Notes: generated by a model not told the origin, from the sequence alone. DNA of 64,000 nucleotides from an uncultured Rhodospirillaceae bacterium (GCA_964649675.1 CAZYPX010000001.1:10470-74469), one strand, 5' to 3'; counted from the first letter of the stretch, positions 11,203 through 63,763 are shown. Numbers and translations are program-made.

Positions 11203-11419
11203 TTCTTCCCTTCTTTTTGCTGCTGCGCGCCCAGGCGTCAATTTCATCCAATCGAAAGCGCCACGTGCCGCCGACTTTGAAGGCAGGAATTTCGCCTCGT
11301 GTAAGAAGGGTATAGATTGAGCGTTCCGTGACCTTGAGGTAAGCGGCGACTTCCTCAACGGTAAAGACCTCTGGCAAGCGTATCTTTTGCGACTCTGTCA
11401 TAGGGCGTAAAATATTCAA
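11195..11419 (-). CDS. AlpA/Xis-family (MerR-like HTH) excisionase/regulator
   Basis: 74-aa ORF: …FTVEEVAAYLKVTERSIYTLLTRGEIPAFKVGGTWRFRLDEIDAWA, a typical phage Xis/AlpA HTH_17. It is the first gene of the minus-strand operon. Confidence 0.55.
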   Translation of the reverse strand: MNILRPMTESQKIRLPEVFTVEEVAAYLKVTERSIYTLLTRGEIPAFKVGGTWRFRLDEIDAWARSSKKKGRNV

Positions 11420-11534
11420 AACTTTTCATTCCTGCAATCCTCCGTTTGACCCCTCCGTGCATGGCGGGGATCTTGTTGGAGGAATTGCTTCAAACGTGTC
11501 AGAAGTCCAGTTCTACGGCCCTTTCTTAAATTGG

Positions 11535-12964: not shown

Positions 12965-13093
12965 ACAAATCTCCATAGCTGCGGGAAGCAAGCACGTGAT
13001 AGCACGGTGATGTGCCAATTCCGGTCACATTGCCCCTTGGTCGCATGAGGTTTTCTGTGGCAAGGTGAGGCAAATCATTAACGAGCTAAAACC

Positions 13094-20339: not shown

Positions 20340-20342
20340 GTT

Positions 20343-21440: not shown

Positions 21441-21448
21441 ATCAGCGT

Positions 21449-22684: not shown

Positions 22685-22712
22685 CTTTGTTCTCCTTCTG
22701 GAAACGGTTTCA

Positions 22713-23609
22713 TTACAGGTGGTAGCCTTGTGGACGCTCGATAATCGGCAAAAACACGCCATCACTGCGTGTTACGGAATACGGCGGAGCGATAATGTAG
22801 TGCTTTCCGCTCTCAATACCTTCCTGTATGCGTCGCTTTGTCGACATATCATGGGCGTTCAACCAGAAGGTCGGTTTGATCGGATGATCAGGTATTTCAA
22901 CGTGGTCGGGACTGTAATTCACGTTCATTTTCAAAATGAGCGTCATGTCCTTCCCTGGATGCAACGGAACCATTGATTGCTCTATTTCCATTGATTTGGA
23001 CACCCGTCCATGCACCTTGATTGAGGGGCTGTCGTATTGAGCAATAACGCGATACTCCTTGCCATTCGCCATGTGCGTTTCGAGGGACAGAATCTTGGTG
23101 TAGAGGCCGAGATTCTTAACCCCATCTATTTCCCTGCCGAGGCTAAACAGAGAGAAGTTTACGAAACTTCCGTCAGCTGCCATTGCATCAATCTGTCCCG
23201 AAACGGGAATATGAGAGAGTTGCTCAAGCTCGATGCAAGGATCATTTTGATAATGTTCCAGCATCACCTTGGGTATATCTCCTTTCGGCTTCATGAAGCC
23301 CACGACGCTTTCTTGCATCAGGACGCAATCGACATAGACCCATCCCGGCATCTTGTAGTCTGCTGATTTAAAGCTAAGCGAATTTGAGAGGAGATAGGCT
23401 TCAAGCAAGGCCTTATGTTCCTCAGCCTCCATGACAAAAGGGCAAAGGTCGATGCCGAAAGGCTTAAGGTTGAAGTGAGGCAAAAGCCGCTTGGACGTTG
23501 CTATATAGGGCACGTAACCGTGCTCTAGAAGTGAGGCAAGCCACGCAGGCGGCTTTTCTCTCACACTTTTTTCAATTTTAGACATTGGGGTACCTTCCTC
23601 CATTCCCAA
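22713..23609 (-). CDS. hypothetical protein (298 aa), first gene of the argG-like operon
   Basis: ORF with no motif I can assign. It ends 26 nt before the argG-like start. Confidence 0.35.
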   Translation of the reverse strand: MGMEEGTPMSKIEKSVREKPPAWLASLLEHGYVPYIATSKRLLPHFNLKPFGIDLCPFVMEAEEHKALLEAYLLSNSLSFKSADYKMPGWVYVDCVLMQESVVGFMKPKGDIPKVMLEHYQNDPCIELEQLSHIPVSGQIDAMAADGSFVNFSLFSLGREIDGVKNLGLYTKILSLETHMANGKEYRVIAQYDSPSIKVHGRVSKSMEIEQSMVPLHPGKDMTLILKMNVNYSPDHVEIPDHPIKPTFWLNAHDMSTKRRIQEGIESGKHYIIAPPYSVTRSDGVFLPIIERPQGYHL

Positions 23610-23858
23610 AACACAGAATTTGCGTTCAGGTCGGCGTTAAAAGTTTTGATGCAAGTCGGCATGCGCTTTTAACGCATGAAGACAAACACAGATGTAATTT
23701 AGGCAGGAGGATATGTGCGCCTAAGCGGCGCGTCGCAGCGTACGAAGAGCAGAAATGTGTGCGACATACTTCATGCGTCATATCCTATGCGAACGGGCCT
23801 GAAGATTCAATAGAAAACACAGGGTTTTTTACTTTCTTCGTGCCCATGGGCATGCCTA

Positions 23859-24836
23859 CTAAAACAACTCGCAAACCATGCAACGAACCGAACCGCCGCC
23901 GAATTTCTCAATCGTTGGGATTGGCGCTTTGATGAATCCCGTCACGTGATTTCGGTATTGCTTGATTTGCGTCCGTGTAAGTGCGCCAAAAGCGCACTGC
24001 GATAGAGCCAAATAACGTTCGTTACTACGGCCAACCACTTCCAGTGCATTTCCACTGAAACTGCGTACCTGATCTGATGTCAGCACGATTACTTCATGGT
24101 TTCGCTCAAGCTCGCTTACAACGCGCTGGCGGTCTCCCTGCACAATCATGTCGGCTGCTATAGCAGCGTACCCGGTACCGATATGGGCTACTACGTTCGT
24201 GTGATAAACAGGTTTGCCTGTGCTATCATCACAAGTGTCAAATACAACCGGTTTATAATCGGTAATCCTGCTCCAGATCTGGATTAAGTCGTCGTTGGTG
24301 CGGCGTGACCGCGCGACATAGGCTTCTCTGTTAATATGGTCGAGGACAAAAACACCCGTTCCCTCCAAACTTTGCCCCTGTCTTTCCGCGCGCGAAAGAT
24401 CAAAAACAAAGTCGTACTTTTCTTTAAGGAAGTTTGTTATGTCATCTCGTCGTTCACGACGGCGGCTTGGCGTCGCCATAGGATAAAGAAACATCGCACC
24501 ATCGGGCGTCGTTGACACCCAATTGTTTGGGAAAACATCATCGGGACAGTTTTTGCTTCCTACAAAACAGGTAACTTGGACACCAGCTTCCAAAAACCGA
24601 TCACGCAAATCGCGCATCTCACGTCTGGCATTTTCAGCGACCTCAGCAGCATTTAAGTCGTTTTTGTGCTGAAATCCGTTATCGACGCCTGTTTCGTGGT
24701 TGTAATTGAACGCAACCGGCTCGATCATAAGAATATGATTGGTAGATTGTGGTCTGTCTTGCATAAGCTCTCCTTTAAATGTCGTTTTGCTATAAAGTGA
24801 ATTGCTGTGCGGCCTCTTTGGGCGTTGAGAGCCCAC
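23859..24836 (-). CDS. guanidino-group modifying enzyme superfamily protein (DDAH/amidinotransferase/CtlX-like)
   Basis: 325-aa ORF with a C-terminal GGGSVRCMVCEL active-site Cys context typical of the amidinotransferase/DDAH/ADI fold. Confidence 0.5.
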   Translation of the reverse strand: MGSQRPKRPHSNSLYSKTTFKGELMQDRPQSTNHILMIEPVAFNYNHETGVDNGFQHKNDLNAAEVAENARREMRDLRDRFLEAGVQVTCFVGSKNCPDDVFPNNWVSTTPDGAMFLYPMATPSRRRERRDDITNFLKEKYDFVFDLSRAERQGQSLEGTGVFVLDHINREAYVARSRRTNDDLIQIWSRITDYKPVVFDTCDDSTGKPVYHTNVVAHIGTGYAAIAADMIVQGDRQRVVSELERNHEVIVLTSDQVRSFSGNALEVVGRSNERYLALSQCAFGALTRTQIKQYRNHVTGFIKAPIPTIEKFGGGSVRCMVCELF

Positions 24837-25854
24837 CGGGAACGCGGTGTTGATTGATGTTGTTTGTTAGGCAATGAATAGCCCCGCCTGCGGCAATGAA
24901 GCGGCTGACGTCTCTCGTAACAACTTCGTATCCAGCCTTGCGAATGCGTTCCTGAAGATCATTGCTGCATTCGGGAATGACGACCGTGCCATTCAGACAA
25001 ACAAGGTTACAGGCCAGCTTTTCGGCATCTTCTTTGGTCACGGGAATGAGGTAGTCATTTATTGGCAAGTCGTAATCGCCAAAAGCACGCTTTTTGAAAA
25101 ACTGAAGCGCTTTTGGAGAAATGCCCTTCTCGTAAAAAACGATGTGGCCCTTAGAGAGGGGCGCTAATGACGTATCAATATGAAAAAACGGTCGGCTTAC
25201 CGGGAGACTTACCACCTCTATTCCAGTCGTCGCTTTTAAAGCCTCATGCGCGCGTAAATCCGAACGCCCTGAAGCCGCGCAAGATCTGTCCGGCTGCTGA
25301 CAATATCCTGACCAAAAGACATCTCTGAAAGCATCATAGACATTATCGCCGGTACCCTCAGTCCGATAATAAGATTCGACAATAGGTCTGTTTGGAAGGT
25401 TGCGCTCGAAAAAAGCTGCATTTATTGCGACCTCGGTTTGCCGGTTTTCATTTGAAAAGCGGCTTAAGAGCGTAATTGATTTTGGCTGATTTGCCCTGCG
25501 CAAGTCCCAGCCATTCCCAATTACTGAAAGCGTTGGGTCGGCTGTAAACACCAAGTCCGGACAATTTCTATCCGGAGTGATTTCTACTACCTGAGCGCCG
25601 AGCGATACCAAAGTACGCTTTAAATCCTTCCATTGGGCATTTGCCTCGCGGCGAAACTTTTTAGGACTTTTTTGATATTCCCTGAATCCCTTAACTTCAA
25701 AATCGTTGGCAGCCCCAACCGCTAAGTCCGGTTCCCTGATCTCATAAAAATCTGGAGGACACATCAAAAAAACTGGGGCTTCACACGAGTTACCTGTCTC
25801 GTGTCCGCTTATGGCAAAATCTACGGCAGACATGGTTTTTGCGCTCCACAACAC
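24790..25854 (-). CDS. amidinotransferase-superfamily protein (second, overlapping paralogue-like gene)
   Basis: 354-aa ORF with C-terminal AAGGAIHCLTNN (conserved catalytic Cys). Its 3' end overlaps the next gene by 47 nt (translational coupling). Confidence 0.5.
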   Translation of the reverse strand: MLWSAKTMSAVDFAISGHETGNSCEAPVFLMCPPDFYEIREPDLAVGAANDFEVKGFREYQKSPKKFRREANAQWKDLKRTLVSLGAQVVEITPDRNCPDLVFTADPTLSVIGNGWDLRRANQPKSITLLSRFSNENRQTEVAINAAFFERNLPNRPIVESYYRTEGTGDNVYDAFRDVFWSGYCQQPDRSCAASGRSDLRAHEALKATTGIEVVSLPVSRPFFHIDTSLAPLSKGHIVFYEKGISPKALQFFKKRAFGDYDLPINDYLIPVTKEDAEKLACNLVCLNGTVVIPECSNDLQERIRKAGYEVVTRDVSRFIAAGGAIHCLTNNINQHRVPGGLSTPKEAAQQFTL

Positions 25855-26129
25855 AAATCAAATTATGTTGTTTGAGGTAACAAAATCCGCGCATACGAAG
25901 CCACGGCAGTAATGATCGCAAAGTGATCACCTTGTGAGCGCTTTCCGCTCAATTCTTTAAGGTGAGTGCACTGCTTTCATGCATTGATGCTTTATGGCTC
26001 AGTCGTTTCCTTTGATTCAAAATCGCTCATATAACGAGCGCAAAATGCTCATTAAACCCGATGCGGTTGCGCACACAAATTTGAAAAATGGAGGCATTCA
26101 ATGAACAGATTTTATGATCAGGAAACGTT

Positions 26130-27998
26130 ATGTGCAGGATATATGGGTATATTTCAGATGGGTCGGATCGCCTCGACCAAAAGATTTTTCAGGTCTCACA
26201 ATCCCAGATAAATGGTGGGCCTGACTCACAGAAAATGGTTGCTTTCCCCGAGTATGGGATTGGATGCAATCGTCTCGCCATAACCGACCCAAGCGGCGGC
26301 CTTCAACCCTATAATGGAGTGCCTGGTGTGTACGCCGTCCTGAATGGCGAAATTTATAATCACGATGAACTGCGACGCGAACTTGAAGGTTACGGATATC
26401 GGTTCAAAGACAGATGCGACGGCACAATTATACCTGCCTTATATGAGAAATACGGCGCGGCGTTCCCTGAATATCTCGATGGGATGTTTACAATTGCCGT
26501 TCTTGATTTGCGTCGAAACAAACCATCCTTGCTGTTGGCCTCCGACACATCTGGTATAAAACCGGTTTATTTTACCCATCGTTCTGGCAATGGCTCACTC
26601 GCTTTTGCGACCGAAATCCCGGCCTTGTTGAACTTCGGCATTGCGCCAGGCTCAATATGGAAAACAGGGATTGATCACTATCTGACAACCCGTAGCGTCA
26701 CAGGCCTTCGCACATTATTGGATGACGTGTATTCGTTGCCGCCGGGCAGCGTTTTACATAAACGATTTGGCAAAGAGCCGAAAATCTCAGCTTACAAGTC
26801 TCGCATTCAATATAACGGCCCTACGCCAAAAGATTTAAATGAAGCAAGCGAGATTTTCAGGGATCTTTTGGCACACGAAGTCAAAAGTCTGTCCAGAGCG
26901 GACGCAAAGGTCTGCAGCATAAACAGCGGAGGTCTGGACTCAAGCCTTGTCACCTCGCTCCTTTGCAGGGCGACTGAAAGTCAGGTCAGCTCGTTTCACG
27001 TCGCTGTCGCAGGCAACTGGCCCTTCGATGAACGCGTCTATGCACGTGAGCTGGCTACCACGTACGGTATCGATTATCACGAGGCCATCGTTCACCCCGA
27101 AGAGATACCGGCGCTGTTCTCAAAGATGGCCTACCATTTGGGACAGCCAAACTGCGCGCCCCACGCCCTAAGCACATTTCGATTGTTTGAAAAGGTCTCG
27201 CAGCATGGCTTCAGGGTTGCGCTAACCGGCGAAGGCTCTGATGAACTATTCTGCGGCCATAGCCGGATCGGGCTTGCCATTAGAGATCAGAATAGAAACT
27301 GGGCTTCGAATTATCTGGATCGCATGGCTCCTTGTCCAGAAGACATGCGTTGGTCGCTTTACAGCAGCGATTTTGCCCAGAGTTTGAAGGCTTCTCAATC
27401 CGTATGCAAAGACAAAAAGACTCAATGGCTCCACAGCATTGAAGACAGGTCGGTTGCGGTCAGAAAATTCGAGCAATGCTTTAGCTTGCCTTACTACATC
27501 CTCCATCGTGTCGAGCCACTCGCTATGGCATCGGGCGTTGAAGTGCGCGTGCCTTTCTGCCAGCCACGCATCATGGACTTTGCGTGGAAAGTTGATCCTA
27601 ATCTCTTTCTTGCCAATGGAGATCGCGGCAAGGCAATCGTCTACGGTGCGGCAGAAGGCCTTGTTCCCCGCTCGATCTTAGAGCGTCCCAAGCAGCCTTT
27701 CACTCTTCCTGTTATCAAATTGATGCACAAGGGAAGCCCGCTGATGGACTTCATTAAAAGCACTCTCTTTTCGCACAGCTTGGCTGAGGATGGAACATTC
27801 AACCAAAGCGGCCTTAAGCGCCTTATCGAAAGGCAAGAAGCCTCACCCTCCAAGGAGACCGCTTTCACCATCTGGGCCGTGGCGAATTACGCTGTCTGGA
27901 AGGACATGGTTGAGGAAATCGTGAAGCAAGCACCTGCGCCAGAGCGGGCTGCAACTCTCGTGGCACAGCCAACCTGCCGCTTGGCTGCATTACCTTAA
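26130..27998 (+). CDS. asparagine synthetase B-like glutamine-dependent amidoligase
   Basis: N-terminal MC nucleophile (class II GATase), PP-loop SINSGGLDSS, 622 aa. The divergent promoter region 25855-26129 is shared with the amidinotransferase operon. Confidence 0.7.
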   Translation: MCRIYGYISDGSDRLDQKIFQVSQSQINGGPDSQKMVAFPEYGIGCNRLAITDPSGGLQPYNGVPGVYAVLNGEIYNHDELRRELEGYGYRFKDRCDGTIIPALYEKYGAAFPEYLDGMFTIAVLDLRRNKPSLLLASDTSGIKPVYFTHRSGNGSLAFATEIPALLNFGIAPGSIWKTGIDHYLTTRSVTGLRTLLDDVYSLPPGSVLHKRFGKEPKISAYKSRIQYNGPTPKDLNEASEIFRDLLAHEVKSLSRADAKVCSINSGGLDSSLVTSLLCRATESQVSSFHVAVAGNWPFDERVYARELATTYGIDYHEAIVHPEEIPALFSKMAYHLGQPNCAPHALSTFRLFEKVSQHGFRVALTGEGSDELFCGHSRIGLAIRDQNRNWASNYLDRMAPCPEDMRWSLYSSDFAQSLKASQSVCKDKKTQWLHSIEDRSVAVRKFEQCFSLPYYILHRVEPLAMASGVEVRVPFCQPRIMDFAWKVDPNLFLANGDRGKAIVYGAAEGLVPRSILERPKQPFTLPVIKLMHKGSPLMDFIKSTLFSHSLAEDGTFNQSGLKRLIERQEASPSKETAFTIWAVANYAVWKDMVEEIVKQAPAPERAATLVAQPTCRLAALP

Positions 27999-28024
27999 AC
28001 CACAAAATTAACAGGAGAATACAA

Positions 28025-29137
28025 ATGAAAGATTTTTATAAAAAACATAAAGATGATTTTAAATTCGCTTGGGAAGTCGAATTGATGGTTACCGATGATA
28101 ACTACACACCTTTGTTTGGTGATACGTTACCGTTTGATCGTCTTCAAGACATCCTGAATTCCGTGCCAGTCAATGATATCCCGTATGTTGTCGAAAAATA
28201 CAAAGGGTCAGGTGTCCGTCCTTACTATATCGAAGGCTACGACGCCGGATATGAAGGGGAAAAAGTCCGAAGCGTCTTTGTAAAAGGGATCGAGATCCGC
28301 ACACCAATATCCTTCACAATAAATGACTCAGTTCAGTCCTTCGCTACATATTACGACAAGATGCAGACAGCGATAGAAGGCGAAAAACTTCACCTTACAT
28401 GTTTTGGTAATCATCCCTTCCAACCAGCCTTTAAAGGGGAACGAGGCCGCCGCAGTGTTATCGAATGGACTTCAGCAGAAGTAGCCACCACCACGCATGG
28501 GCTTGTCGTCAATATCAGTTTGCCCGACGCGCTTGAAGCCAAACTGGATCGGCAAAAGCTCGACATCCGCTTTTCCTACGCGGCCCCCACGATGGTGCTA
28601 TTTGCGGGAAACACGCCCTTCAGAAATGGCGAACTCTGGAAGCCCGATGGACGGCAAGCCTATTCAGATCGATCATACCGCAGATCATTCGTGCGCAATA
28701 CGGTCTATTACCGCGACGAGCATCACAATCGTAAGGAAGTGACATTGTTCGATATGACCAATGATCTGAACATGTACCGAGCTTTCGCGGCCCTTAGCCT
28801 TGGCATTATTCTCAGCGATGAGGAAGTTCCTGTAATCCCTGACCGTTTTTCGAAAGAAAATATCCGTCGCGTTACAAAGCATGGTTATGACGCACAACTC
28901 ATGAACAGGCACTTTGAAGAGGCTGCAGCTGAAACCGTAGCCCATCGCGTGCTCGACTTGGTCTCGACAGCCCTCAAGCAACATGGCTTTGACACCGCAA
29001 TGGTCAATCCATTATGGAAACAGGTCGAGGAGAAGGAAATGCCCGCTCATCGCACTATTCAAGCCTACAACGAAGGCGGGTCTATCCAGTCCGTGCTAAA
29101 GTCCCGTTCGCAGCTCATACGTCTGACCCGCGAATGA
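28025..29137 (+). CDS. divergent GCS2/YbdK-like carboxylate-amine ligase (tentative)
   Basis: 370-aa ORF. FAWEVELMV and VLFAGNTPF resemble the YbdK blocks LGVEFELGL and LSASSPF seen in the bona fide ybdK at 46280-47533 in this window. The similarity is weak. Confidence 0.35.
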   Translation: MKDFYKKHKDDFKFAWEVELMVTDDNYTPLFGDTLPFDRLQDILNSVPVNDIPYVVEKYKGSGVRPYYIEGYDAGYEGEKVRSVFVKGIEIRTPISFTINDSVQSFATYYDKMQTAIEGEKLHLTCFGNHPFQPAFKGERGRRSVIEWTSAEVATTTHGLVVNISLPDALEAKLDRQKLDIRFSYAAPTMVLFAGNTPFRNGELWKPDGRQAYSDRSYRRSFVRNTVYYRDEHHNRKEVTLFDMTNDLNMYRAFAALSLGIILSDEEVPVIPDRFSKENIRRVTKHGYDAQLMNRHFEEAAAETVAHRVLDLVSTALKQHGFDTAMVNPLWKQVEEKEMPAHRTIQAYNEGGSIQSVLKSRSQLIRLTRE

Positions 29138-29827
29138 TCACCGGCTTGACTTCGTGTGCTTCTGAACCATCGGCATTGTTTGCGTCGCCTTTTCCCACAG
29201 AGATGTGAAATGGCGACGCGCCGAAATAACCATCTTGGGCGACTCAACAAGAATGAGTTTGCCAAAAGGTTCTCCATTTGGAGCCACGATGCCGTATTTC
29301 TCGCCATAGACGCAAAATGGCACGGGATCCATAAAGGTGCGTGGCAGGACACGGAATTGAAACCGAGGTGTTGAAAATGGCGGTTCAATCTCATCCGTCA
29401 GCAAACATTTAATTGTCACAGTGCTGTTAAGATCAACAAGCGCGTCAAGGTCGGTAATACGTCCTATACCGCAATACTTGGCGAACGCAGCTGACGTTGG
29501 CGCAACAATAAGGACATCTCCGCCATAGTGCTGAACAGTTTGCTTCAGATCCTCGTAGAAATCTTTACCGCCGTGTCCGCCTTCGTAGATATGAACGCCG
29601 CTCAATCGCCTCCGGAGGCCATCCGACTCCAGAAACTCGATACCGGCAGTTTCAAGACATTGCCTTATCTGCGTGGTCGTTGCTCCACGCGGCATAAAGC
29701 CGGTTTCAATCCGTCTTATAGTTGCCAGCGATATGCCCGTGGCATTCGCCAATTCCTTTTGCGACCAGTCTAACAAAGCCCGCGCTGCTCTGATTTGCCG
29801 CGAGCTGATACTATCAACCCGCCACAT
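29138..29827 (-). CDS. XRE-type HTH protein with conserved C-terminal domain of about 150 aa (paralogue 1)
   Basis: N-terminus IRAARALLDWSQKELANATGISLATIRRIE. The C-terminus shares blocks (GIEF, GGDV, KCLL, FQFR, P.PF..YG.KY, F…WEK) with the ORFs at 31172, 33377 and 63110. Confidence 0.55.
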   Translation of the reverse strand: MWRVDSISSRQIRAARALLDWSQKELANATGISLATIRRIETGFMPRGATTTQIRQCLETAGIEFLESDGLRRRLSGVHIYEGGHGGKDFYEDLKQTVQHYGGDVLIVAPTSAAFAKYCGIGRITDLDALVDLNSTVTIKCLLTDEIEPPFSTPRFQFRVLPRTFMDPVPFCVYGEKYGIVAPNGEPFGKLILVESPKMVISARRHFTSLWEKATQTMPMVQKHTKSSR

Positions 29828-30335
29828 GATATTCTCCTAAATTTGCATTTTCGGGTAAAAAGAATTCAGCCATATCGATTAGCTCATGCAGGACAGGTGT
29901 CTCGGCATGTTTCAAAAGGCTAATTTTCTTTAGAAACCTGTGCTTGCGTTTTTGCTTCGGTAGAAGTGGATCTTCGGAGGCTACCCGACCGGAATAGACA
30001 AGCGTGTAGACCGGCTCGCCTTTATCATTCCTTCCCTCAAGAATACTTGAAACGCGCAGGTCGCCAAGCTTCACGTTGGCGGCTTCAATGGCTTCCCTTC
30101 TAGCCGCGTCCTCAGCGTCTTCATCATCCCACTCGACCTTACCGCATAAAATTGAGTACTTCCGGCCCTGCCTAAAGGACAAAATTCTATCCTGATCGTT
30201 AAACGCAATCACCTTGACCCTACGAACCCTATCGGGATCGTAAGGAAAAACAGGTTCATGAAGCTGGATATCTATCATCAATAAGCCTCCAGCCAATTCA
30301 ATTCGACTTTCGCGAGGCCATAAGCCATGCGCCAA
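29814..30335 (-). CDS. NUDIX-like hydrolase (degenerate Nudix box)
   Basis: GKVEWDDEDAEDAARREAIEAANV approximates GX5EX7REUXEEXGU. 173 aa. Confidence 0.35.
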   Translation of the reverse strand: MAHGLWPRESRIELAGGLLMIDIQLHEPVFPYDPDRVRRVKVIAFNDQDRILSFRQGRKYSILCGKVEWDDEDAEDAARREAIEAANVKLGDLRVSSILEGRNDKGEPVYTLVYSGRVASEDPLLPKQKRKHRFLKKISLLKHAETPVLHELIDMAEFFLPENANLGEYHVAG

Positions 30336-30487
30336 TGCTGCTCGATTTCTCCTTGAGTAAAACCTTCCGCCTTCAAGTCTTCGGGACGGCAGGATCCGTT
30401 GTTTTTCAGGAGTTCAATGATGGCGGTCGCCATGCGGTCGCAATCAGCAAAGAATCCTTTATCGCCTTGGATGCCAACGATTTTCAT
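30278..30487 (-). CDS. hypothetical small protein (69 aa)
   Basis: ORF only. It overlaps neighbours at both ends, so the start is uncertain. Confidence 0.2.
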   Translation of the reverse strand: MKIVGIQGDKGFFADCDRMATAIIELLKNNGSCRPEDLKAEGFTQGEIEQHWRMAYGLAKVELNWLEAY

Positions 30488-30924
30488 ATTTCCTCTCCTT
30501 CGTCGGCTTTTATTTCCTCGTCGATCATCGCCAAAACGCGGTTCGCGATCAGGTCGTCGGTAGCCATCTGGTAAAAATGCTGTTCCCGGAGGCGCGTTTG
30601 GCGAACTATGAGTTGTTCATAAAACTGAAGTAAGGTGGGTCGATCATGCGGAAGAGAGGCATCGCCTTTGTTCACGAGCTGACCTTTGAAATGATTGATC
30701 ATGTCGTTGATAGTGGTGCTGCTGACAGAAGGAACTTGATCGCATCTGCCAAATTGCTCTGGATGTGTTACTATGCAGAACTCTTCGATAAGACCGGCCA
30801 GCTTTCTTGCTTTATCCGCACCATCGTTATTGGCGTTTTCGCCCTTCATAACGACCGCTAAAAATCCCAAAGCTGTGAAAAGAACCTTAAAATCCGTGCG
30901 TGTCATGAAATCCTCTTTGATCAA
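30484..30924 (-). CDS. hypothetical protein (146 aa), first gene of the NUDIX/XRE operon
   Basis: ORF in the same orientation and tightly packed with the downstream genes. Confidence 0.3.
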   Translation of the reverse strand: MIKEDFMTRTDFKVLFTALGFLAVVMKGENANNDGADKARKLAGLIEEFCIVTHPEQFGRCDQVPSVSSTTINDMINHFKGQLVNKGDASLPHDRPTLLQFYEQLIVRQTRLREQHFYQMATDDLIANRVLAMIDEEIKADEGEEI

Positions 30925-31127
30925 ATATCACTTTGACCAAATGCGCAGGATCCCAAGCGTAAAACCACTTGTATATTTGTAGGTATTCAATGAAGTTTTG
31001 GAGGTTTCATACAAAAACAAGGACAGTTAGCGAAATTCGCTGATTTTTTGTATGTTTTTGCGAAGCTGAAAAGCAGGTGACGCAGATCGCGTATATTAAT
31101 TTGCTGTTATGAAGCACAAAAAACGAT

Positions 31128-31152
31128 AAGCGCGGCACCAACCGCGCTATAT
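31128..31152 (-). terminator. rho-independent terminator after XRE paralogue 2
   Basis: Minus-strand hairpin AGCGCGG-TTGGTG-CCGCGCT followed by a T-rich run (TATCGTTTTTTGTG). Confidence 0.35.
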
Positions 31153-31171
31153 CGAACCAATCCAAAATGTT

Positions 31172-31831
31172 TTAAGCGTTTGTGCGAGCGGTAAGCGGTC
31201 TGCCTTTTTCCCAAAAGACGTGAAATTGTGTGCGATGGGAGCTGGCCATACGTGTGGACGTGAAGACAAGATACCTGTAATTGCCGTTTTCTTCCAGGAG
31301 GACGTGAGCGTATTTATTGCCGTAAATATAAAACGGTGGCGGCATAATCGAGAAGCTGGTTATTGCGCGAAATTCAAACTGCGGAATTCTCATAGCAAAT
31401 TCGGAAGTTTGCGGCAGCAAGCATTTCACAGGAGCAATTTTGCCGATCTGCAGCAGTCGATCCATCGCATTTGGCCCAACGGCCCCACACGTATCGGCAA
31501 GCATCTCGGAGGATTCCATCATTGAAACCACGTCCCCGCCTCGCAGCTGTATAGTGGTCTTCAGGTCTTCGAGGAAACATTCGGTGCTTTTCTCGCCCAT
31601 AAAAACGTCAAAGTCTCGACGGCGTTGAACGCCTTCGGCGGTAGTAAACTCCAGTCCAGCCTTCTCGACAGCGCGTTTAATGTTTTCAGCAACTCTCACG
31701 CTTGGGACACAGCCCGTTTCGATGTTGCGGATCGTTGAAACGGCGACACCTGCTTCTTCAGCCATTCGTTCCTGAGACCAGTCAAGCATGGCTCTGGCGG
31801 CTTTGATTTGAGCTGGCTGCAAGCGGTACAT
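31172..31831 (-). CDS. XRE-type HTH protein with conserved C-terminal domain (paralogue 2)
   Basis: IKAARAMLDWSQERMAEEAGVAVSTIRNIE plus the shared C-terminal blocks. Confidence 0.55.
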   Translation of the reverse strand: MYRLQPAQIKAARAMLDWSQERMAEEAGVAVSTIRNIETGCVPSVRVAENIKRAVEKAGLEFTTAEGVQRRRDFDVFMGEKSTECFLEDLKTTIQLRGGDVVSMMESSEMLADTCGAVGPNAMDRLLQIGKIAPVKCLLPQTSEFAMRIPQFEFRAITSFSIMPPPFYIYGNKYAHVLLEENGNYRYLVFTSTRMASSHRTQFHVFWEKGRPLTARTNA

Positions 31832-31852
31832 AAGTTTGTCCTTGAAAATCTT

Positions 31853-32155
31853 TTATTCAAATACTTCGTTCGCCACCTTGGCATCTTCAGCTTGATCTGC
31901 GGAAGAGTGTTGCTGAAGTTTTTCCTTCAACGAAACCCCATGCTGCGTAAAAAACTCAACACCGTGATCTGAAAATACGCTTATAATTTTCTCAACTGTC
32001 GCAGCGGTCGGCATAAACTGACCGTGCTCGATATTTTTTACTGTTTCAGCGGAAATACCTACGAATTTCCCGCATTGCGCTCGACTCCAGTCCAACAGTG
32101 CTCTGGCAGCACGAAGTTGTACAGGTTTGATGGTTGTAGGGGTCTGCTGCTTCAT
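31853..32155 (-). CDS. short XRE-type HTH protein (HTH module only; paralogue 5)
   Basis: VQLRAARALLDWSRAQCGKFVGISAETVKNIE…HGVEFF. The likely start is M29 of the listed ORF (32155), which avoids overlap with the upstream gene. Confidence 0.45.
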   Translation of the reverse strand: MKQQTPTTIKPVQLRAARALLDWSRAQCGKFVGISAETVKNIEHGQFMPTAATVEKIISVFSDHGVEFFTQHGVSLKEKLQQHSSADQAEDAKVANEVFE

Positions 32156-32168
32156 AGTTCGGCTCTTG

Positions 32169-32489
32169 TTAGTTGATGGCCTCGGCAAAGTTAAAATTGA
32201 CGAGATAACGAACGACATCATCAAATTGATCTCGTTCAAAATCTTTGACGGCTTTAACGCCGAAGGCTGTCGTCAAAATTGCGACAACCAGTTCTGCACT
32301 AACGTTTTGTGAGTAGGCCACGTAGGCAACTACAGCAGAAACTGCTCTCAATTCCTGTTGTGCAAACTTCCCCGTATAAAGGGAGGCAAGCTCTATATTG
32401 ATGGGATTTGCGCGTTCGGCGAAGTAGTCATGCGCCGGTTTGGCTTCCTCAATCATTTTACGAATAAGAGCTTTACGATCTGACAACAT
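32169..32489 (-). CDS. small protein of unknown function (paralogue A)
   Basis: Shares a conserved core (…A.V.AYVA.SQ.V..E.V..I.TT..G..AV…Q…Y.D.VEYLV…) with 32506-32832. Confidence 0.35.
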   Translation of the reverse strand: MLSDRKALIRKMIEEAKPAHDYFAERANPINIELASLYTGKFAQQELRAVSAVVAYVAYSQNVSAELVVAILTTAFGVKAVKDFERDQFDDVVRYLVNFNFAEAIN

Positions 32490-32505
32490 GACGAACCTTA
32501 AATAA

Positions 32506-32832
32506 TTAGTTCACAACCTGATCCATCTTCAAATCTACCAGGTACTCAATGGCGTCTTGATAAAGGCGCGAAGGCAGCGCCGCCACGGCACCGATACCAT
32601 AATGAGTTGTAATGACCTCACACACGGTCTCTTCCCGAACTTTCTGCGTATGAGCTACATAAGCAATCAGGCCGAGAACAGCGGTCAGCTCAATTTTGTT
32701 CAGGGATTTTTCGTTGGCTTTCCGATGGGCAATGAGGGCAGAGGTCAAACGGTTAAGCTCGCCAGTCGAGATTTCACCATCTTCCGTTCGGTCGCTTGAG
32801 ATAATCGCTTTTTGAATTTTCGAACTGGTCAT
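32506..32832 (-). CDS. small protein of unknown function (paralogue B)
   Basis: 108-aa tandem paralogue of 32169-32489. Confidence 0.35.
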   Translation of the reverse strand: MTSSKIQKAIISSDRTEDGEISTGELNRLTSALIAHRKANEKSLNKIELTAVLGLIAYVAHTQKVREETVCEVITTHYGIGAVAALPSRLYQDAIEYLVDLKMDQVVN

Positions 32833-32853
32833 TTGAAATCCCTCTCTGTAAAA

Positions 32854-33060
32854 TTAGGCCATACCTGCGGCATACGCTCCCGTTTCACTGGTGAAATATT
32901 TGTCCGTTTCGCGGATGAAATAATTCCAGCGATCCTCTAAGGACATCACAACTTGATGTTTGATTTTCATGTGGCGTTCCCAGCCTTCGACAATCTCGTG
33001 GGCAACGCTTTCGCCGCGTGTTGCGACATATGTGTCAAAATGCATCGTCATTAATTTCAT
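32854..33060 (-). CDS. hypothetical small protein (68 aa), first gene of the small-protein/XRE operon
   Basis: ORF with a plausible RBS context, sitting at the head of a five-gene minus-strand array. Confidence 0.25.
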   Translation of the reverse strand: MKLMTMHFDTYVATRGESVAHEIVEGWERHMKIKHQVVMSLEDRWNYFIRETDKYFTSETGAYAAGMA

Positions 33061-33282
33061 CCCTTAAAAAATAACGTCAATTTACCCTTAATGTTTGTGA
33101 CCTTACCAAACGGGTCGGGTGAAAGCAAGGTAATAGTTTATGTGAGAGATACTCAAAGTTACTTTAATAGTAATATTGCAGCCACCAGAAAAGCCTGCAG
33201 AAGACCAAAATCTTTAACTACTTCTTAACACTTAACAGCGCCATACCCATAATTGGTAGATTAGTACCAATAACCGGTAAAA

Positions 33283-33304
33283 TTTTGCCGATCATCTTCT
33301 TGCT
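33283..33304 (+). promoter_or_regulatory. palindromic candidate operator AATTGGTA-N6-TACCAATA upstream of XRE paralogue 3 and AsnB-like 2
   Basis: The perfect 8-nt inverted repeat with a 6-nt spacer lies about 70 nt upstream of ATG 33377 in an AT-rich promoter region. That region also holds three CTTAAC direct repeats (33216-33240). Confidence 0.3.
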
Positions 33305-33376
33305 TTTCTTGTGCAACTATTTCTGCTATGGTAATTTAAAATTACTCTGAGAGATACATTTCAACAGGAACAAGCC

Positions 33377-34036
33377 ATGCCAACAGGGAAACAAGTCAGG
33401 GCTGCACGGGTTCTCGCTGGATGGGATGCGGAGCATCTTGCGCAAAGCACAGGTCTCACCGCCGTCACCATCCTAAAGATTGAGCGAGACGAAGCAATGC
33501 CACGTCCGGCCACGATGGAGAAAATTGTTCGGGCGTTTGACAAAGAAGGCATCGAGTTCACCGACAACCAAGGCGTTCGATTCAAACCAACGGGCGTTAC
33601 CGTATATGATGGTGTGGCTGCCTTCGAAGACTTCCATGAATTCCTGTATCTCCATTTGAAACAACACGGCGGTGAAGTTTGCCTGAGCATTTATGATGAA
33701 CCTTCGCTCGCCAAGTACCGTAAAGATCCTGAAATACATCGCTCACGCATGAGAGAGTTGGTAGGTAGCGGAAAAGTCACCTTCAGAATACTGACGACAC
33801 AAAGCAGTTGGAATACGCGTGGGTACATTCAATTTAAATGGCTGCGAAACCAACGGCCTTTACCTACAGGCTTTTATGCGTTCGGAGATTGCTTGGCATT
33901 GGTGTCATTTGTTGATCCGCAATCGCCATATGTTGTCGTTCTTCAATCAGGGCCAATGACTGAAGCCTATCGCCAAGGCTTCAATATCGCATGGGATTCA
34001 GCGGAGAATCCCCCAAGCGAAGGCACCGATAAATGA
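33377..34036 (+). CDS. XRE-type HTH protein with conserved C-terminal domain (paralogue 3)
   Basis: VRAARVLAGWDAEHLAQSTGLTAVTILKIE plus the shared C-terminal blocks. It is followed 13 nt later by AsnB-like 2. Confidence 0.55.
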   Translation: MPTGKQVRAARVLAGWDAEHLAQSTGLTAVTILKIERDEAMPRPATMEKIVRAFDKEGIEFTDNQGVRFKPTGVTVYDGVAAFEDFHEFLYLHLKQHGGEVCLSIYDEPSLAKYRKDPEIHRSRMRELVGSGKVTFRILTTQSSWNTRGYIQFKWLRNQRPLPTGFYAFGDCLALVSFVDPQSPYVVVLQSGPMTEAYRQGFNIAWDSAENPPSEGTDK

Positions 34037-34049
34037 GTGGGGAATAGCT

Positions 34050-35876
34050 ATGTGTCGAATCTTCGGACAATTAGGCCATCCTCATATTGATGAAAGAGTA
34101 TTGCAGCGAGTTGCGCTCGCTATGGTGCATGGCGGCCCAGATCGTCAAAATTACGTAGTCGGCAATATGTGGGCCATGGGCAGCGACCGCTTGGCTATAC
34201 AAGGAATCGAGGGCGGCAATCAGCCATTCACAGAGCACAAAGGTCTCTGCATTTTATTCAATGGCGAAATTTACAATCACCGTGCGCTCAGAGAAGACTT
34301 AAGAACACAAGGCTTCTCCTTTTCTGATGAATGTGACGGCAACGTTATTGCGCCGCTATTTTTGCTCCATGGGGCGGATTTTGTCAGATATCTTGAAGGC
34401 ATGTTTGCCATTGCTCTGTTGGACGAGCGCAGCCAGCCGACGCTTTATGTGTATTCAGATCCGTCTGGTATGAAATCCGTCTACTACCAATGGGACAGCA
34501 AAAACCAAGTTCTGAGTTTTGCTTCCGAAATTGAGGGTTTGGCTTTGTTGACGCAGACCCCGCTTACTATCAAGCCCAAGCCCCTTTACGATTACTTTTC
34601 TTTACGTGCTATTTGTGGCGAAGAAACGATTTTTCAGAACATTTCTACGCTGGGGCCAGCTCGCATGTTGCGCTATGAGTTGGGCAAAGAGCCACAAATT
34701 ACTACTTATTCCTCCGCCGCAAAGTCGGAAACACCCGATAACGATCTAACGAAGGCCGGACTTCAACTGCGTGACCTTCTGGACAAAGAAATCGCGTTGC
34801 AGCTGGCTTCAGATATGCCGGCGTGCCTTGTTATAAGCGGAGGTGTAGATTCGTCCCTAGTCGCGGCTTTGGCAGCTCGACAAAAGGATAATCTTCACTC
34901 ATTTCACCTTTGTTATAAGGGCAACTGGCCGTACGACGAACGAAGGTATGCGCGTGACACAGCCGAGAAATGGCGCATCAATCATCATGATGTCGAGCTT
35001 GATCCGGATACATTCCCTGCCTCTATTATGAAAATGGTTCGGCATCTCGGACAGCCTAACTGGGCACCCCATACCTTAAGCACCTACTGTTTATTCGAAG
35101 AAATTCACAACTCTGGATTTAGAGTTGCTATTACTGGTGAAGGTTCTGACGAGTTTTTTGGCGGTTACCAATATTACAGTTCAGCCTTGGCCGAGGGCAA
35201 TAACTGGGTTGATGACTTTTTGTATAAACTCAGTCCATTTACGAAAACAGTGCGCGACGATGTGCTTGCTTCCGATTATAAAGAACTTCTATGCAGCCAG
35301 ACAACTCACGTCGAAGAGTACACCAAACAATTAGAGAAAACGCGTCCTGGCGAGGAACGGCTCAATTTGATGCAATCCTTCGATCAACAAATGCGTTTTC
35401 CAAATTATATTTTGCGTCGCGGCGATCATTTGAGCATGGCACATGCTGTTGAGATGCGTGCTCCGTTTTGTCAACCACGCATCATGGATTTTGGATCACG
35501 CTTACCGTTTGGGCATCGCGTGTCAGTGGAACAAAGAAAACGCACAGTTTATGAAGCGGCACGCGGGCTTGTTCCCGACTCCGTAATGAACCGCGAAAAG
35601 CAAGCATTCGTTCTTCCGATTACAGAAATGATAAAACGTGGAAGTCGATTGTACGATTTTATGATGTCTATTTTTGAATCGGCATCATTTCGTCATCGTG
35701 GCTACTTTGATGCGGATAGGATATTGGCTTATTCCCAGCAACAAGCCAAAACTCCAAGCGTTGATGTTGCCAATGCGATGTGGGCGGCAATGTCTCTTGA
35801 ATTATGGCTTCAATATATTGACGAAATAAATTCGGAACTTGAGTTGTCCCCCTTGGTCGAGCAGGAAGTGGCTTGA
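34050..35876 (+). CDS. asparagine synthetase B-like glutamine-dependent amidoligase (second copy)
   Basis: MC N-terminus, PP-loop VISGGVDSS, 608 aa; paralogous to 26130-27998. Confidence 0.7.
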   Translation: MCRIFGQLGHPHIDERVLQRVALAMVHGGPDRQNYVVGNMWAMGSDRLAIQGIEGGNQPFTEHKGLCILFNGEIYNHRALREDLRTQGFSFSDECDGNVIAPLFLLHGADFVRYLEGMFAIALLDERSQPTLYVYSDPSGMKSVYYQWDSKNQVLSFASEIEGLALLTQTPLTIKPKPLYDYFSLRAICGEETIFQNISTLGPARMLRYELGKEPQITTYSSAAKSETPDNDLTKAGLQLRDLLDKEIALQLASDMPACLVISGGVDSSLVAALAARQKDNLHSFHLCYKGNWPYDERRYARDTAEKWRINHHDVELDPDTFPASIMKMVRHLGQPNWAPHTLSTYCLFEEIHNSGFRVAITGEGSDEFFGGYQYYSSALAEGNNWVDDFLYKLSPFTKTVRDDVLASDYKELLCSQTTHVEEYTKQLEKTRPGEERLNLMQSFDQQMRFPNYILRRGDHLSMAHAVEMRAPFCQPRIMDFGSRLPFGHRVSVEQRKRTVYEAARGLVPDSVMNREKQAFVLPITEMIKRGSRLYDFMMSIFESASFRHRGYFDADRILAYSQQQAKTPSVDVANAMWAAMSLELWLQYIDEINSELELSPLVEQEVA

Positions 35877-35892
35877 ACGATTTAAACTTCTG

Positions 35893-37770
35893 TTACTTGT
35901 TGGAATTGATAATTTCTCGCAGAAATGCTTCCCCATATCGCTCCAGCTTAGCCGCGCCAATCCCCGAAATGTTCCCCATCTCCTGTAACGTCTTTGGCTG
36001 CGCTTTGGCTAAACCAATCAGGGTTGTGTCATGGAAAATGACATAAGGTGGCACGTTTTGCGCCTTGGAGAGTTCGAGACGCAAAGCACGCAAGCGTTGG
36101 AAAAGTTGTTCGTCGTCCGCATTGTCCAGAGTTGGTTTGCCCTTTGGGCCTTCGGAGGCTGAAACGCGCTTTGATTTAACCTCACGTCTAAGCGCAAAAG
36201 TGGCATCCTCACGCAGCGTCACTTTCTTCTCGCCGCGTAAGACCGGTTTGCATAGCTCGTCGGATCCCAACCGTAAACCGCCATGCCCTTCCATGTCTGT
36301 AACAAGCAATCCATGAACGACAAGCTGGCGAAAAATGTCGCGCCACTGAACGCGGCTGAACTCCTTGCCCACACCATAGGTCGGCAACTGGTTGTGCCGG
36401 AACTGGCGAATGCGTTCGGTATCCGCGCCAACGAGCACGTCCGTCAGATGGGCCGCGCCGAACCTCTGGCCGGTGCGGATCGCGCACGACAACGCCTTTT
36501 GCGCGGCTACGGTGCCGTCAAAAGAGGGAACAGGGTGAAGGCACAGGTCACAGTTGCCGCAGGGTTCGGCAAGTGTTTCCCCAAAGTATTCCAGCAGAAC
36601 CTGCCTGCGGCATCGGGGGCTTGAGCAATAACCGATCAAGGCATCCAGCTTGCGGCGCTCCAGTTGCTTGCGCTGTTCGCTTGCTTCGCCGTCCTCGATC
36701 ATCTAGCGCAGCTTGGCGACATCCTCAATGCCGTAGAGCAGCAATGCTTCCGAAGGCAGGCCATCGCGTCCGGCACGGCCTGTTTCCTGATAGTAGGCCT
36801 CGATGCTTTTGGGCATATCCATGTGAACAACAAAGCGCACATCCGGCTTGTCGATCCCCATGCCAAAGGCGATGGTTGCCACGATGATCACGCCTTCGTC
36901 TTTGATAAACCTGTCTTGGTTTCGCGCACGGACATCGGCTGCCAGTCCTGCGTGATAAGGAAGCGCGTTATAGCCTTGTCGTGCCAACCAATCGGCGATC
37001 TCCTCAACACGAGCGCGGGACAAGCAATAGACGATTCCGGATTCCCCGGCGTGATCTTTCTTTAGAAACCGCAACAACTGCTCGCGCGGCTTGGCTTTCG
37101 GCGTGACATGATAGCGGATGTTTGGACGATCAAAGCTGGAAATAAAGATGCGCCCGCGTTCCAATTTCAGCTTTTTGACAATCTCATTACGAGTCGGCAC
37201 ATCGGCGGTGGCCGTCAAAGCGATGCGCGGGACATTCGGGAAGCGTTCATGCAAAACAGTCAGTTGCAGGTATTCAGGTCGGAAATCGTGCCCCCATTGG
37301 GAGACGCAATGCGCCTCATCAATGGCAAACAGAGAAATCTGGCATTCGCCCAACAGGTTGAGCGTTCCCTCCATCAACAGTCGTTCTGGCGCAACGTAAA
37401 GAAGATCAAGTTCCCCGGAGCGCATCTTCCCGATAATCCGTGCAGCTTCGCCATTCCCCAGTGTTGAATTGAGCGCTGCTGCCCGAACTCCAAGCTGCTT
37501 TAAAGCCTCCACCTGATCTCGCATCAGGGCAATCAGCGGCGATATCACAACTCCAACGCCTGGACGGCATAGGGCGGGTATTTGAAAGCACAGTGACTTT
37601 CCTCCGCCCGTAGGCATCAGCACAAGAGCCTCGCCGCCGTTTACCGCATGCGTGATAATTTCTTCTTGCCTGCCCCGAAAAGAGTCAAAACCAAAAACAT
37701 TGCGCAGAACATCAAATGAATCGGCTTGCTTTGCTTTTGTGATTTCACAGTTTGGCGAGGACAATTGCAT
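35893..37770 (-). pseudogene. recQ: recQ helicase gene interrupted by a single in-frame TAG (helicase core, then Zn-binding/WH/HRDC part)
   Basis: The 355-aa ORF (DEAH helicase, …[25 protein letters not shown]) stops at TAG 36703-36705. The next codon is the ATG of a 269-aa ORF in the same frame (…CGNCDLC… then an HRDC-like C-terminus). Together they align collinearly with RecQ as I recall it. Confidence 0.7.
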
Positions 37771-63109: not shown

Positions 63110-63763
63110 ATGAGCAATGGACAATCTGTAATGATCACAATCCCGCAGATCAAGGCCGCCCGAGCTCTTTTGGGATGAACGCAGCGGGATTTGGCCAAGA
63201 CAAGCGGCATTTCGTTGGCGGCAATAGCCCAGATCGAGAGCGGCGCAGGCAATCCGCGTCTTGGAACGATGCGTGTCATTCAAAACGCTTTTGAGAGGCA
63301 TGGGGTCGAATTTTCTGATGATCCGGGGGTTCGCGTTCAGGCGGAACCGTTCGACGTTATAGTGTGGCAGGGGCGCGAGGCTGTTGAACGGCTTTGGAAC
63401 GATATCGAGGAGACGATGGGCGATGGCGGCGTATTATCGGTCAGTGCGATGCGTCACCACATCTGGGAGGAGTTGTTTCCCGGGCGCGTAAAAGAAGTTT
63501 ATGAAAGCCGCGTCAAGAAGAACATAAGCATGCGTGGGCTGTTCGCGAAGATAGAAGACAACACGACGTGGCCGTCCGAGAGTTGCCGTCTTGTGCCGCT
63601 TGACGCGCTCAACACGCACACGCCGCACTACATCTATGCCGACAAAGTGGCGCTCGTAAAGCTGACCGATCCCTTGCGCGTCGTCTTGATCCGCAATCCA
63701 ACGCTGGCGGAAAGCTTTCTCAAACAGTTCCAGTTTCTGTGGGACACCGGTAAAAAATTCTAG
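63110..63763 (+). pseudogene. XRE-type HTH protein, paralogue 4, with in-frame TGA replacing the conserved Trp codon
   Basis: ATG 63110 gives MSNGQSVMITIPQIKAARALLG-TGA-TQRDLAKTSGISLAAIAQIESG… In the paralogues this position is W (ALLDWSQ, VLAGWDA). The rest of the 217 codons are intact and carry the shared C-terminal blocks. Confidence 0.5.

Follow-up and report, generated by a model that had tools for sequence, protein, structure and literature searches.

A widespread family of probable one-component regulators with a predicted phospholipase D-like domain, found in a conserved module of an uncultured Rhodospirillaceae bacterium

Five open reading frames (ORFs) in a 64,000-nucleotide stretch of DNA from an uncultured Rhodospirillaceae bacterium (GCA_964649675.1, CAZYPX010000001.1:10470-74469; the whole stretch is referred to as the window) form a family related by an XRE-type helix-turn-helix (HTH). 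The ORFs were verified at 29138, 31172, 31853, 33377 and 63110 and are named by these coordinates. We use the name HP for this family, in which the HTH is joined to a C-terminal domain (C-domain) with a predicted phospholipase D (PLD) fold, and the names HP_A for the 33377 type and HP_B for 31172. A preliminary description had each island copy flanking a separate small operon, usually as its last gene, and regarded this placement as unusual. Our analysis instead finds three tightly packed units of one conserved module (Table 1). Unit 1, on the minus strand from 33060 to 31172, comprises F2, F1, F1', the HTH-only gene 31853 and HP 31172, with gaps of 13-21 nt; unit 2, on the same strand from 30906 to 29138, consists of F3, F4, a NUDIX hydrolase and HP 29138, with an overlap at every junction; and unit 3, on the plus strand from 33377 to 35876, begins with HP 33377, followed 13 nt on by an AsnB-like amidotransferase. 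The family gene is last in the operon for 31172 and 29138, as had been described, but first for 33377. Because end placement is conserved in a recurring module (the position of 31172 is repeated in the related loci L025, L027, L029 and L018), and because a 33377-type gene is an ordinary first gene with a palindrome over its promoter, we no longer regard this placement as unusual. Homologs of F2, for which profile scans gave no family match, adjoin family members in seven loci, and a NUDIX homolog occupies the equivalent position in L003. The AsnB-like product of 34050 clusters with that of window gene 26130 (GATase_7 plus Asn_synthase) and with an identically annotated neighbour in L027.

The HTH was recognized by the Pfam HTH_3 model (PF01381; gathering score 23 bits) in 29138 (35.8 bits), 31172 (32.1 bits), 31853 (29.4 bits) and 33377 (33.8 bits), and in 113 of 115 family members. 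The C-domain was compared separately by cutting the four long proteins at their shared G-[ILV]-E-F motif and using only the C-terminal parts in BLASTP. With this approach 29138 matched 31172 at 80 bits and 33377 at 40 bits, while 63110 was matched by 33377 at 33 bits and by 31172 at 29 bits; the weakest pair, 29138 and 63110, was not significant in BLASTP alone. A family hidden Markov model (HMM) of 115 database relatives scored 225 bits for 29138, 193 for 31172, 354 for 33377, a consensus-like member, and 118 for the 63191 ORF of 63110. These scores indicate that the domain of approximately 150 aa is real and truly homologous across 29138, 31172, 33377 and 63110. The proposal of a paralogous family is thus upheld, as is the HTH-only nature of 31853, whose HMM match is limited to positions 2-72. 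Two of the conserved blocks that had been listed (KCLL and P.PF.IYG.KYA) are subgroup features. Residues conserved throughout the family are G62, E64, F65, G70, G83, F90, G102, G103, K/R159, F171, G175, S196, R204, F207 and W211. Mutual identities of 23-39% mark the window paralogs as old.

An exhaustive HMMER search of 1.84 billion representatives, with the four window C-domains as sole query, recovered 1508 clusters at 50% identity (E <= 1e-3), or 582 at E <= 1e-10. Nearly all of the matches are 210-235 aa long with a domain that begins at residue 58-63, which makes HTH plus C-domain the usual architecture. The proteins come from bacteria, for the most part uncultured Alphaproteobacteria. 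An earlier suggestion of a lineage-specific expansion holds for copy number, with approximately ten copies in 8.5 kb of a related metagenome-assembled genome (MAG), but not for lineage specificity, given the 1508 public clusters. Other architectures were also found. P0154 consists of two whole HP proteins fused head to tail, and P0130, P0232, P0233, P0237, P0244 and P0246 contain three to seven tandem C-domain copies. In P0130 (926 aa), P0232 (1079 aa), P0237 (524 aa) and P0244 (509 aa) the tandem copies lie behind an N-terminal TrmB winged helix (Pfam PF01978; E-values of 1e-6 to 3e-15), and P0232 bears the JGI name 'sugar sensing transcriptional regulator'. The HP C-domain was linked to these winged-helix multi-copy proteins by hmmsearch (E-value 4e-32), by hhalign of the window profile with P0130 (probability 93%) and by BLASTP of the 63191 ORF with P0130, which matched in six places at E < 0.01 (best match 27% identity over 139 aa). 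These profile and pairwise comparisons show homology between the HP C-domain and the domains behind TrmB-type winged helices. The occurrence of tandem copies behind true TrmB winged helices further indicates that the C-domain is a portable regulatory module, paired with two unrelated DNA-binding domains.

Scans with Pfam, NCBIfam, PHROG and PADLOC found no model that covers the C-domain and matched the HTH only, and the family profile, searched against PDB sequences, returned HTH matches, a chance-level deoxycytidine kinase and Nuc only at an E-value of approximately 0.6-1. Structure prediction, proposed in the preliminary description, produced a confident model with a PLD-like fold: the AlphaFold2 model of the 29138 protein, obtained with a 115-sequence alignment (pLDDT 91.4, pTM 0.76), has a four-helix HTH followed by a single alpha/beta domain that ends at about residue 215. 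Foldseek searches with this model gave TrmBL2 as the top match (E 8e-8), with TrmB, NucT and Nuc all below 3e-4; for the C-domain, TrmBL2 and TrmB are structurally nearest, followed by Nuc. On the strength of these Foldseek matches the predicted fold of the C-domain is that of the PLD/Nuc superfamily, and its nearest solved proteins are archaeal TrmB-type regulators. The second, beta-barrel subdomain of TrmB is absent from the model, which stops after its one alpha/beta domain. Pfam did not detect the TrmB winged helix PF01978 in the window proteins, which have HTH_3 instead, and there was no cupin match in the window proteins or the 115 members.

The catalytic signature of the superfamily was sought in the same alignment. 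No His is invariant or near-invariant in the C-domain across the 115 aligned members, the HxK(x)4D motif is missing from these sequences, and Pfam PLDc matched neither the window proteins (E <= 1) nor the 115 members (E <= 0.01); faint PLDc_2 matches (E 0.009-0.05) were confined to two multi-copy relatives. Position 157, which precedes K/R159, is occupied by Q60/E17/T15/K9 among the 115 members, its equivalence to the catalytic His being deduced from strand order. From the lack of a conserved His and the residues at this putative His position, we infer that the C-domain is non-catalytic, having lost the catalytic residue. The lack of this His, together with use of the domain behind TrmB winged helices, suggests a regulatory or oligomerization domain rather than an enzyme. 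Of the two roles offered earlier, a sensor-regulator is the better option and an HTH-enzyme is disfavoured because no His is conserved.

Candidate binding sites were found in the 316-bp divergent region upstream of 33377, where two operators, O1 and O2, have the form TACC-N7-GGTA. This pattern occurs exactly twice in the 64-kb window, both times upstream of 33377, as compared with 0.19 expected, and only one of 100 shuffled sequences attained two matches. In 386 kb of non-redundant loci, 11 of the 12 exact matches are located upstream of an HP gene at a distance of no more than 600 bp; these 11 span eight loci, seven of them outside the window, and upstream intervals of that size account for 6.2% of the sequence (binomial P = 6e-13). 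The placement of O1 and O2 over the 33377 promoter, with the -10 hexamer inside O1, is the geometry that would be expected of a dimeric HTH repressor occluding its own promoter. The palindromes that had been suggested as binding sites upstream of 33377 thus gained comparative support, but the one in the 25855-26129 divergent promoter did not: TCGCAAAGTGATCACCTTGTGA (25916-25937) was dropped as it is absent from the orthologous L025 promoter and from all other loci. A weak candidate from the divergent promoter of the enzyme cluster, GCTCATATAACGAGC, was described post hoc by the pattern RCTCAT-N5-GAGY, of which it is the sole match in the window; at least one match occurs in 29 of 100 shuffled sequences, and there are two matches in the orthologous L025 promoter. 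A perfect palindrome at 33331-33345, GTAATTTAAAATTAC, is situated 32 bp before the start codon of 33377 and is unique in the window (0 expected); it was rejected because it has no counterpart in 34 related loci.

These 34 related loci, which include duplicate assemblies, were fetched through a genome scan, contig look-ups and the family HMM. Their recurrent layout has an F2 gene (approximately 55-90 aa) and an F1 gene (approximately 75-140 aa), at times followed by an HP gene and then F3, F4 and F6, diverging from an HP gene that has one or two enzyme genes behind it, and HP adjoins enzyme genes at 15 loci or more as well as in the window. The partner of HP is AsnB-like in the window, L016 and L027, GCS2-like in L031 and L034, a GNAT in L012, L015 and L022, formyltransferase-like in L009 and L018, an alpha/beta-hydrolase with or without a His-phosphatase in L010, L013 and L033, a methyltransferase in L006, L029 and L032, and an unassigned 240-aa protein in L007, L014 and L021. 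With this variation in the partner of 33377-type genes, the earlier notion of a family tied to one orphan enzyme cluster is not supported. Only the 29138 orthogroup stays beside the arginine-type cluster: the 29138 ortholog P0022 of MAG STD2_20, 70% identical, follows F3-F4 next to such a cluster. A high copy number was seen in L003 (JAQUYN010000002.1 1-8600, MAG STD2_238), where a stretch of 8.5 kb contains approximately ten HP genes, one directly after another and on both strands. Identities of only 23-57% among these genes indicate that they are old paralogs. The array is preceded by an F3-F4 fusion, a NUDIX gene and an HTH-only copy (1492-1818), which is cut at the same junction as 31853, is 50% identical to it over the HTH and has the recognition helix SAETIKNIEHG versus SAETVKNIEHG in 31853. 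At least five separate HP loci are present in MAG binchicken_co3_43. In L027 (1-12400, JGI Ga0455843_0000011) the module, made up of F6/HP/F1/F2 and HP/AsnB-like genes, adjoins AlpA and a tyrosine integrase, and the element also has ArdC, DUF736 and DUF2958 genes; this neighbourhood indicates that the module can ride on an element resembling an integrative and conjugative element (ICE).

Comparison of 33377 with its counterparts in L016 and L027 revealed a mosaic. Identity is 87-89% in the C-domain and 38-43% in the HTH, and sliding DNA identity to L027 and L016 rises from 45-55% to 80-88% at approximately 33,560-33,580, the position of the G-I-E-F junction. It remains at approximately 80% across the whole AsnB-like gene and drops to 20-40% past approximately 35,845, so that a 2.3-kb cassette is common to the window, L016 and L027 at approximately 80% nucleotide identity. 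A similar pattern emerged when 15 HP_A genes were grouped by downstream enzyme: C-domain identity is 72% within and 52% between enzyme groups, while HTH identity is 45% in both cases. There are also cross-group pairs in which the HTH is 76-82% identical and the C-domain approximately 50%, and L009 and L012 have both flanks in common and different enzymes. As judged from these identity profiles, a cassette of C-domain and enzyme gene has been exchanged between genomes at the domain junction. Together, the identity steps and the group comparison indicate that the C-domain travels with the enzyme gene and the HTH with the promoter side, and such co-travel fits a sensor matched to its enzyme.

Table 1. 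Coordinates of genes and candidate regulatory features in the window
Feature	Position	Strand	Remarks
Weak candidate operator GCTCATATAACGAGC	26025..26039	.	divergent promoter of enzyme cluster
HP 29138, 229 aa, last of F3-F4-NUDIX unit	29138..29827	-	tail to tail with GCS2-like gene
NUDIX hydrolase, 154 aa	29814..30278	-	Pfam NUDIX 8e-8; 14-nt overlap with 29138 start
F4, conserved, 69 aa	30278..30487	-	4-nt overlap with F3; F3-F4 fused in L003
F3, 140 aa, opens second minus-strand unit	30484..30906	-	present in 6 loci
Terminator-like hairpin, 8 pairs, 6 GC, T-rich tail	31129..31148	-	directly 3' of 31172; pattern match only
HP_B 31172, full-length, last of F2-F1-F1'-HTH operon	31172..31831	-	
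HTH-only paralog, 100 aa from called ATG	31853..32155	-	stops approximately 32 aa past GVEF junction, no C-domain
F1', 106 aa, F1 paralog	32169..32489	-	27% identity to F1; motif YVA..Q.V...YLV common to both
F1, 108-aa conserved helical protein	32506..32832	-	
F2, 68 aa, opens divergent operon	32854..33060	-	C-terminus ..AAGMA
Sigma-70-like promoter of 33377, TTAACA-17 nt-CATAAT	33225..33253	+	consensus match only, 10/12 positions
Candidate operator O1 TACCCATAATTGGTA	33244..33258	.	holds -10 hexamer CATAAT
Candidate operator O2 TACCAATAACCGGTA	33265..33279	.	21 bp (two helical turns) after O1
HP_A 33377	33377..34036	+	XRE HTH aa 1-57, PLD-fold C-domain (predicted) aa 58-219; first of two genes
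Exchanged cassette: C-domain-coding part of 33377 + whole AsnB-like gene	33565..35876	+	from sliding DNA identity
AsnB-like glutamine amidotransferase, 608 aa, N-terminal Cys2	34050..35876	+	13 nt downstream of 33377
Fifth family member, between infC and thrS	63110..63763	+	TGA at 63176-63178; most divergent C-domain

We consider it probable that the HP proteins are a widespread, unnamed family of one-component transcription regulators that act as local repressors. Under this interpretation, the PLD-fold domain would dimerize the protein, as that fold does in Nuc and TrmBL2, and would set two HTHs on TACC-N7-GGTA, whose half-sites are approximately one helical turn apart. The two sites, 21 bp apart, would span both the -10 hexamer and the start region of the 33377 promoter, so that 33377 would repress its own gene together with the AsnB-like enzyme gene of the same transcript; the divergent F2-F1 operon would probably be repressed too. 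Repression may be relieved when the C-domain senses a small molecule connected with the neighbouring enzyme, an idea suggested by the observation that the C-domain, and not the HTH, co-varies and physically travels with the enzyme gene. The 31172 and 29138 proteins, made from the 3' ends of divergent units, have different recognition helices and would act on other promoters, with the 29138 orthogroup probably controlling the adjacent arginine-type enzyme cluster. The HTH-only product of 31853 may occupy operators without a C-domain, as a competitor, and the 63110 copy would be inactivated.

Several observations weigh against this interpretation. The promoter and terminator patterns are no commoner in the window than in shuffled sequence, and approximately half of the fetched loci have no exact TACC-N7-GGTA. 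Recognition helices differ among HP_A proteins that share this pattern, which may therefore be bound by one or another protein of the module. Co-travel of C-domain and enzyme could also arise from plain physical linkage, as this, with selection of breakpoints at the domain boundary, would look alike. The effector domain of TrmB has two subdomains, with six of the seven sugar contacts in the second, a beta-barrel, while no effector-binding domain or sugar-binding residues are listed for TrmBL2 (PMC4158304). HP proteins have only the first TrmB subdomain, in which helices flank a sheet, and are without this sugar-contact barrel. For these reasons, a ligand is plausible but is not implied by homology.

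The main alternative, to which we assign a smaller but appreciable probability, is that HP proteins are ligand-independent, TrmBL2-like repressors of a mobile module, in which the PLD domain serves for dimer or tetramer formation and for cooperative or filament-like DNA binding, and the paralogs make up a CI/Cro-like immunity or switch set. The closest structure being that of TrmBL2 and the missing TrmB barrel both speak for this alternative, as do the helical phase of the two operators, the divergent units with their HTH-only paralog, the ICE-like setting of the L027 module beside AlpA and a tyrosine integrase, and the position of the window module at the edge of a low-GC island with defence genes. 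On the other hand, the C-domain conserves R119, R126, R140, K/R159, S182, S196, Y203 and R204, a set that is more pocket-like than interface-like, its identity follows the type of the neighbouring enzyme, and many members occur in ordinary chromosomal contexts without mobile-element genes.

The window module itself lies at the edge of a low-GC island, with a GC content of 0.44-0.50 at 3194-18806 as compared with 0.53-0.58 after 36 kb, and there is neither a tRNA nor an integrase at this island edge within the window. The 3194-18806 segment holds a defence-type set of an AAA_21/AbiEii-like ATPase (934 aa), a T5orf172 plus ResIII helicase (835 aa), an Eco57I-type methyltransferase split over two ORFs that overlap (8985-10553 and 10546-11358), a WYL-WCX regulator and a 1139-aa SF1 helicase that has an RNase-H-like domain. 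Between this set and 29138 is the arginine-type cluster (18921-29137), which encodes argininosuccinate lyase, an M20 peptidase, argininosuccinate synthase, a 298-aa unassigned protein, two DDAH-like proteins, an AsnB-like amidotransferase and a weak GCS2-like ligase. This layout is kept in MAG STD2_20 (L025), with an ornithine decarboxylase added and the AsnB-like gene absent. The F2 proteins and the related F8 proteins (window, L005, L010, L013, L015, L025 and L027) are conserved over their N-terminal 45 aa and have a variable tail that ends in ..LAA, ..MAA, ..AAA or ..GMA and resembles ssrA-type C-terminal degradation signals; from these tails, the proteins may be unstable regulators.

Two further alternatives assign the family to other known functions. 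HP proteins would be type II antitoxins if the HTH protein neutralized and co-repressed a variable downstream enzymatic toxin such as a GNAT. This is unlikely: although the HTH resembles those of HipB, MqsA and HigA-type antitoxins, the regulator gene leads and is closely followed by a second gene of variable type, and GNAT partners occur in three loci, the partners include AsnB-like proteins of 610-630 aa whose catalytic Cys is intact, as well as GCS2-like ligases, methyltransferases and hydrolases, and none of these is a known toxin family. PADLOC and NCBIfam gave no toxin match, and the best NCBIfam HTH scores were 31-32 bits against a cut-off of 71.65. Even less probable is an HTH-tethered nuclease or phosphodiesterase of the PLD family, such as an effector in defence or restriction of the BfiI, NgoAVII or Nuc kind. 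Such an enzyme would suit an island that also carries defence genes, and the conserved K/R159 and S182/S196 might equal the Lys and Ser of the HKD motif (as judged by strand order). Against it stand the missing His and PLDc matches already described, the failure of PADLOC to match anything beyond the HTH, the loss of even the basic residue in the fifth copy (63110) and the service of the domain behind TrmB winged helices in multi-copy regulators. Finally, the reading of five unrelated XRE regulators with a C-terminal likeness by chance, for which only the non-significant BLASTP comparison of 29138 and 63110 could be cited, is refuted by the HMM scores of the four long copies (118-354 bits), transitive BLASTP matches among the C-domains, one confident predicted fold and the same architecture in 1508 database clusters.

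The fifth copy lies between infC and thrS, next to which the preliminary description had placed it, but its ORF is not intact. Codon 23 of 63110 is TGA (TGG->TGA) where all other copies have a conserved Trp. Recoding of TGA was considered and ruled out, since the remaining five Trp codons of 63110 are TGG and TGA terminates eight of the 24 long ORFs in the window; this codon usage identifies the TGA as a nonsense mutation. On this evidence 63110 is a pseudogene or yields an N-truncated product from TTG 63191. The 190-aa ORF from this TTG (P0020) is on record in NCBI, ENA and Logan, and its HTH_3 score of 20.2 bits falls under the 23-bit cut-off because the nonsense codon removes helix 1. One other gene in the 64 kb is interrupted by a nonsense codon: recQ (35893-37770, minus strand) is split by an in-frame TAG at 36703-36705 (..CTG CGC TAG ATG ATC..) into ORFs of 355 and 269 aa. 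The two interrupted genes could reflect gene decay, or an assembly or population variant. In L032 (5001-7648), an unrelated metagenome contig with HP, Methyltransf_33 and IF3 genes, HP stands by infC as it does in the window (62136-64000), a neighbourhood that may be coincidental.

The HP proteins share features with several known systems without belonging to them. As in TrmBL2 (5bpd/5bpi) and TrmB (2f5t, 3qph), the best structural matches, a DNA-binding domain is followed by a PLD-fold domain, and the HP C-domain is homologous in sequence to domains that follow genuine TrmB winged helices; like TrmBL2, HP proteins are without the second, sugar-binding subdomain. In contrast to TrmB, they have an XRE/Cro-C1 HTH, no winged helix and no coiled-coil arm, are not matched by any Pfam TrmB C-terminal model and occur in bacterial rather than archaeal hosts. 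XRE-cupin regulators, of which Pseudomonas aeruginosa has eight paralogs, act locally to repress the enzyme genes beside them (PMC7901475). HP proteins resemble this group (PauR, PsdR, ErfA and PuuR) in having an XRE HTH with a C-terminal companion, several paralogs per genome and enzyme-gene neighbours, but their companion is predicted to have the PLD fold and is not a cupin, their regulatory role is a putative one, and their C-domain and enzyme move as a cassette. XRE-cupin proteins are the closest analogue in function and TrmBL2/TrmB the closest in structure, with HP a member of neither group. The PLD fold is also that of the HKD PLD/Nuc superfamily (Nuc 1bys, NucT 6ehi, Zucchini 4ggj) and of the pseudo-PLD FAM83 (DUF1669), from which HP proteins differ in lacking the HxK(x)4D motif and a Pfam PLDc match and in being fused to an HTH. 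Controller (C) proteins of restriction-modification (R-M) systems, such as C.Kpn2I (4yba), have a similar HTH, but are approximately 80-100 aa long with no companion domain and reside in R-M operons, whereas HP genes have no adjoining R-M genes and four of the five window copies carry an extra domain of approximately 150 aa. In the literature, searched through an incomplete library, we found no description of an XRE regulator with a PLD-like or TrmB-like domain. HP is a one-component regulator with a new domain combination, and its most unusual features are the exchange of cassettes at a domain boundary and the arrays of paralogs.

Here we have given a name to a large, unannotated class of bacterial regulators, comprising 1508 clusters in which two thirds of the protein is without a Pfam or NCBIfam model, and have tied this class to the archaeal TrmB family by structure and sequence. 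We provide a concrete candidate operator, TACC-N7-GGTA, with a predicted promoter, and a clean natural case of domain-boundary recombination that moves the C-domain of a regulator with the adjacent enzyme gene. For annotation, the family serves as a caution that fold alone is no ground for calling HP proteins nucleases or phospholipases. More speculatively, F2-F1 diverging from HP_A and a variable enzyme may constitute a 'plug-and-play' sensor-enzyme system, in which recombination at the invariant G-I-E-F..G-V-R linker swaps matched cassettes between genomes and among mobile islands, and arrays of up to ten paralogs act as a reservoir. If this tentative proposal were true, a resident promoter/HTH unit would in one step gain both a metabolite response and an activity that it had lacked. 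This would represent a previously undescribed route by which one-component regulators evolve, and the module might be a new one for signalling or defence in uncultured Alphaproteobacteria.

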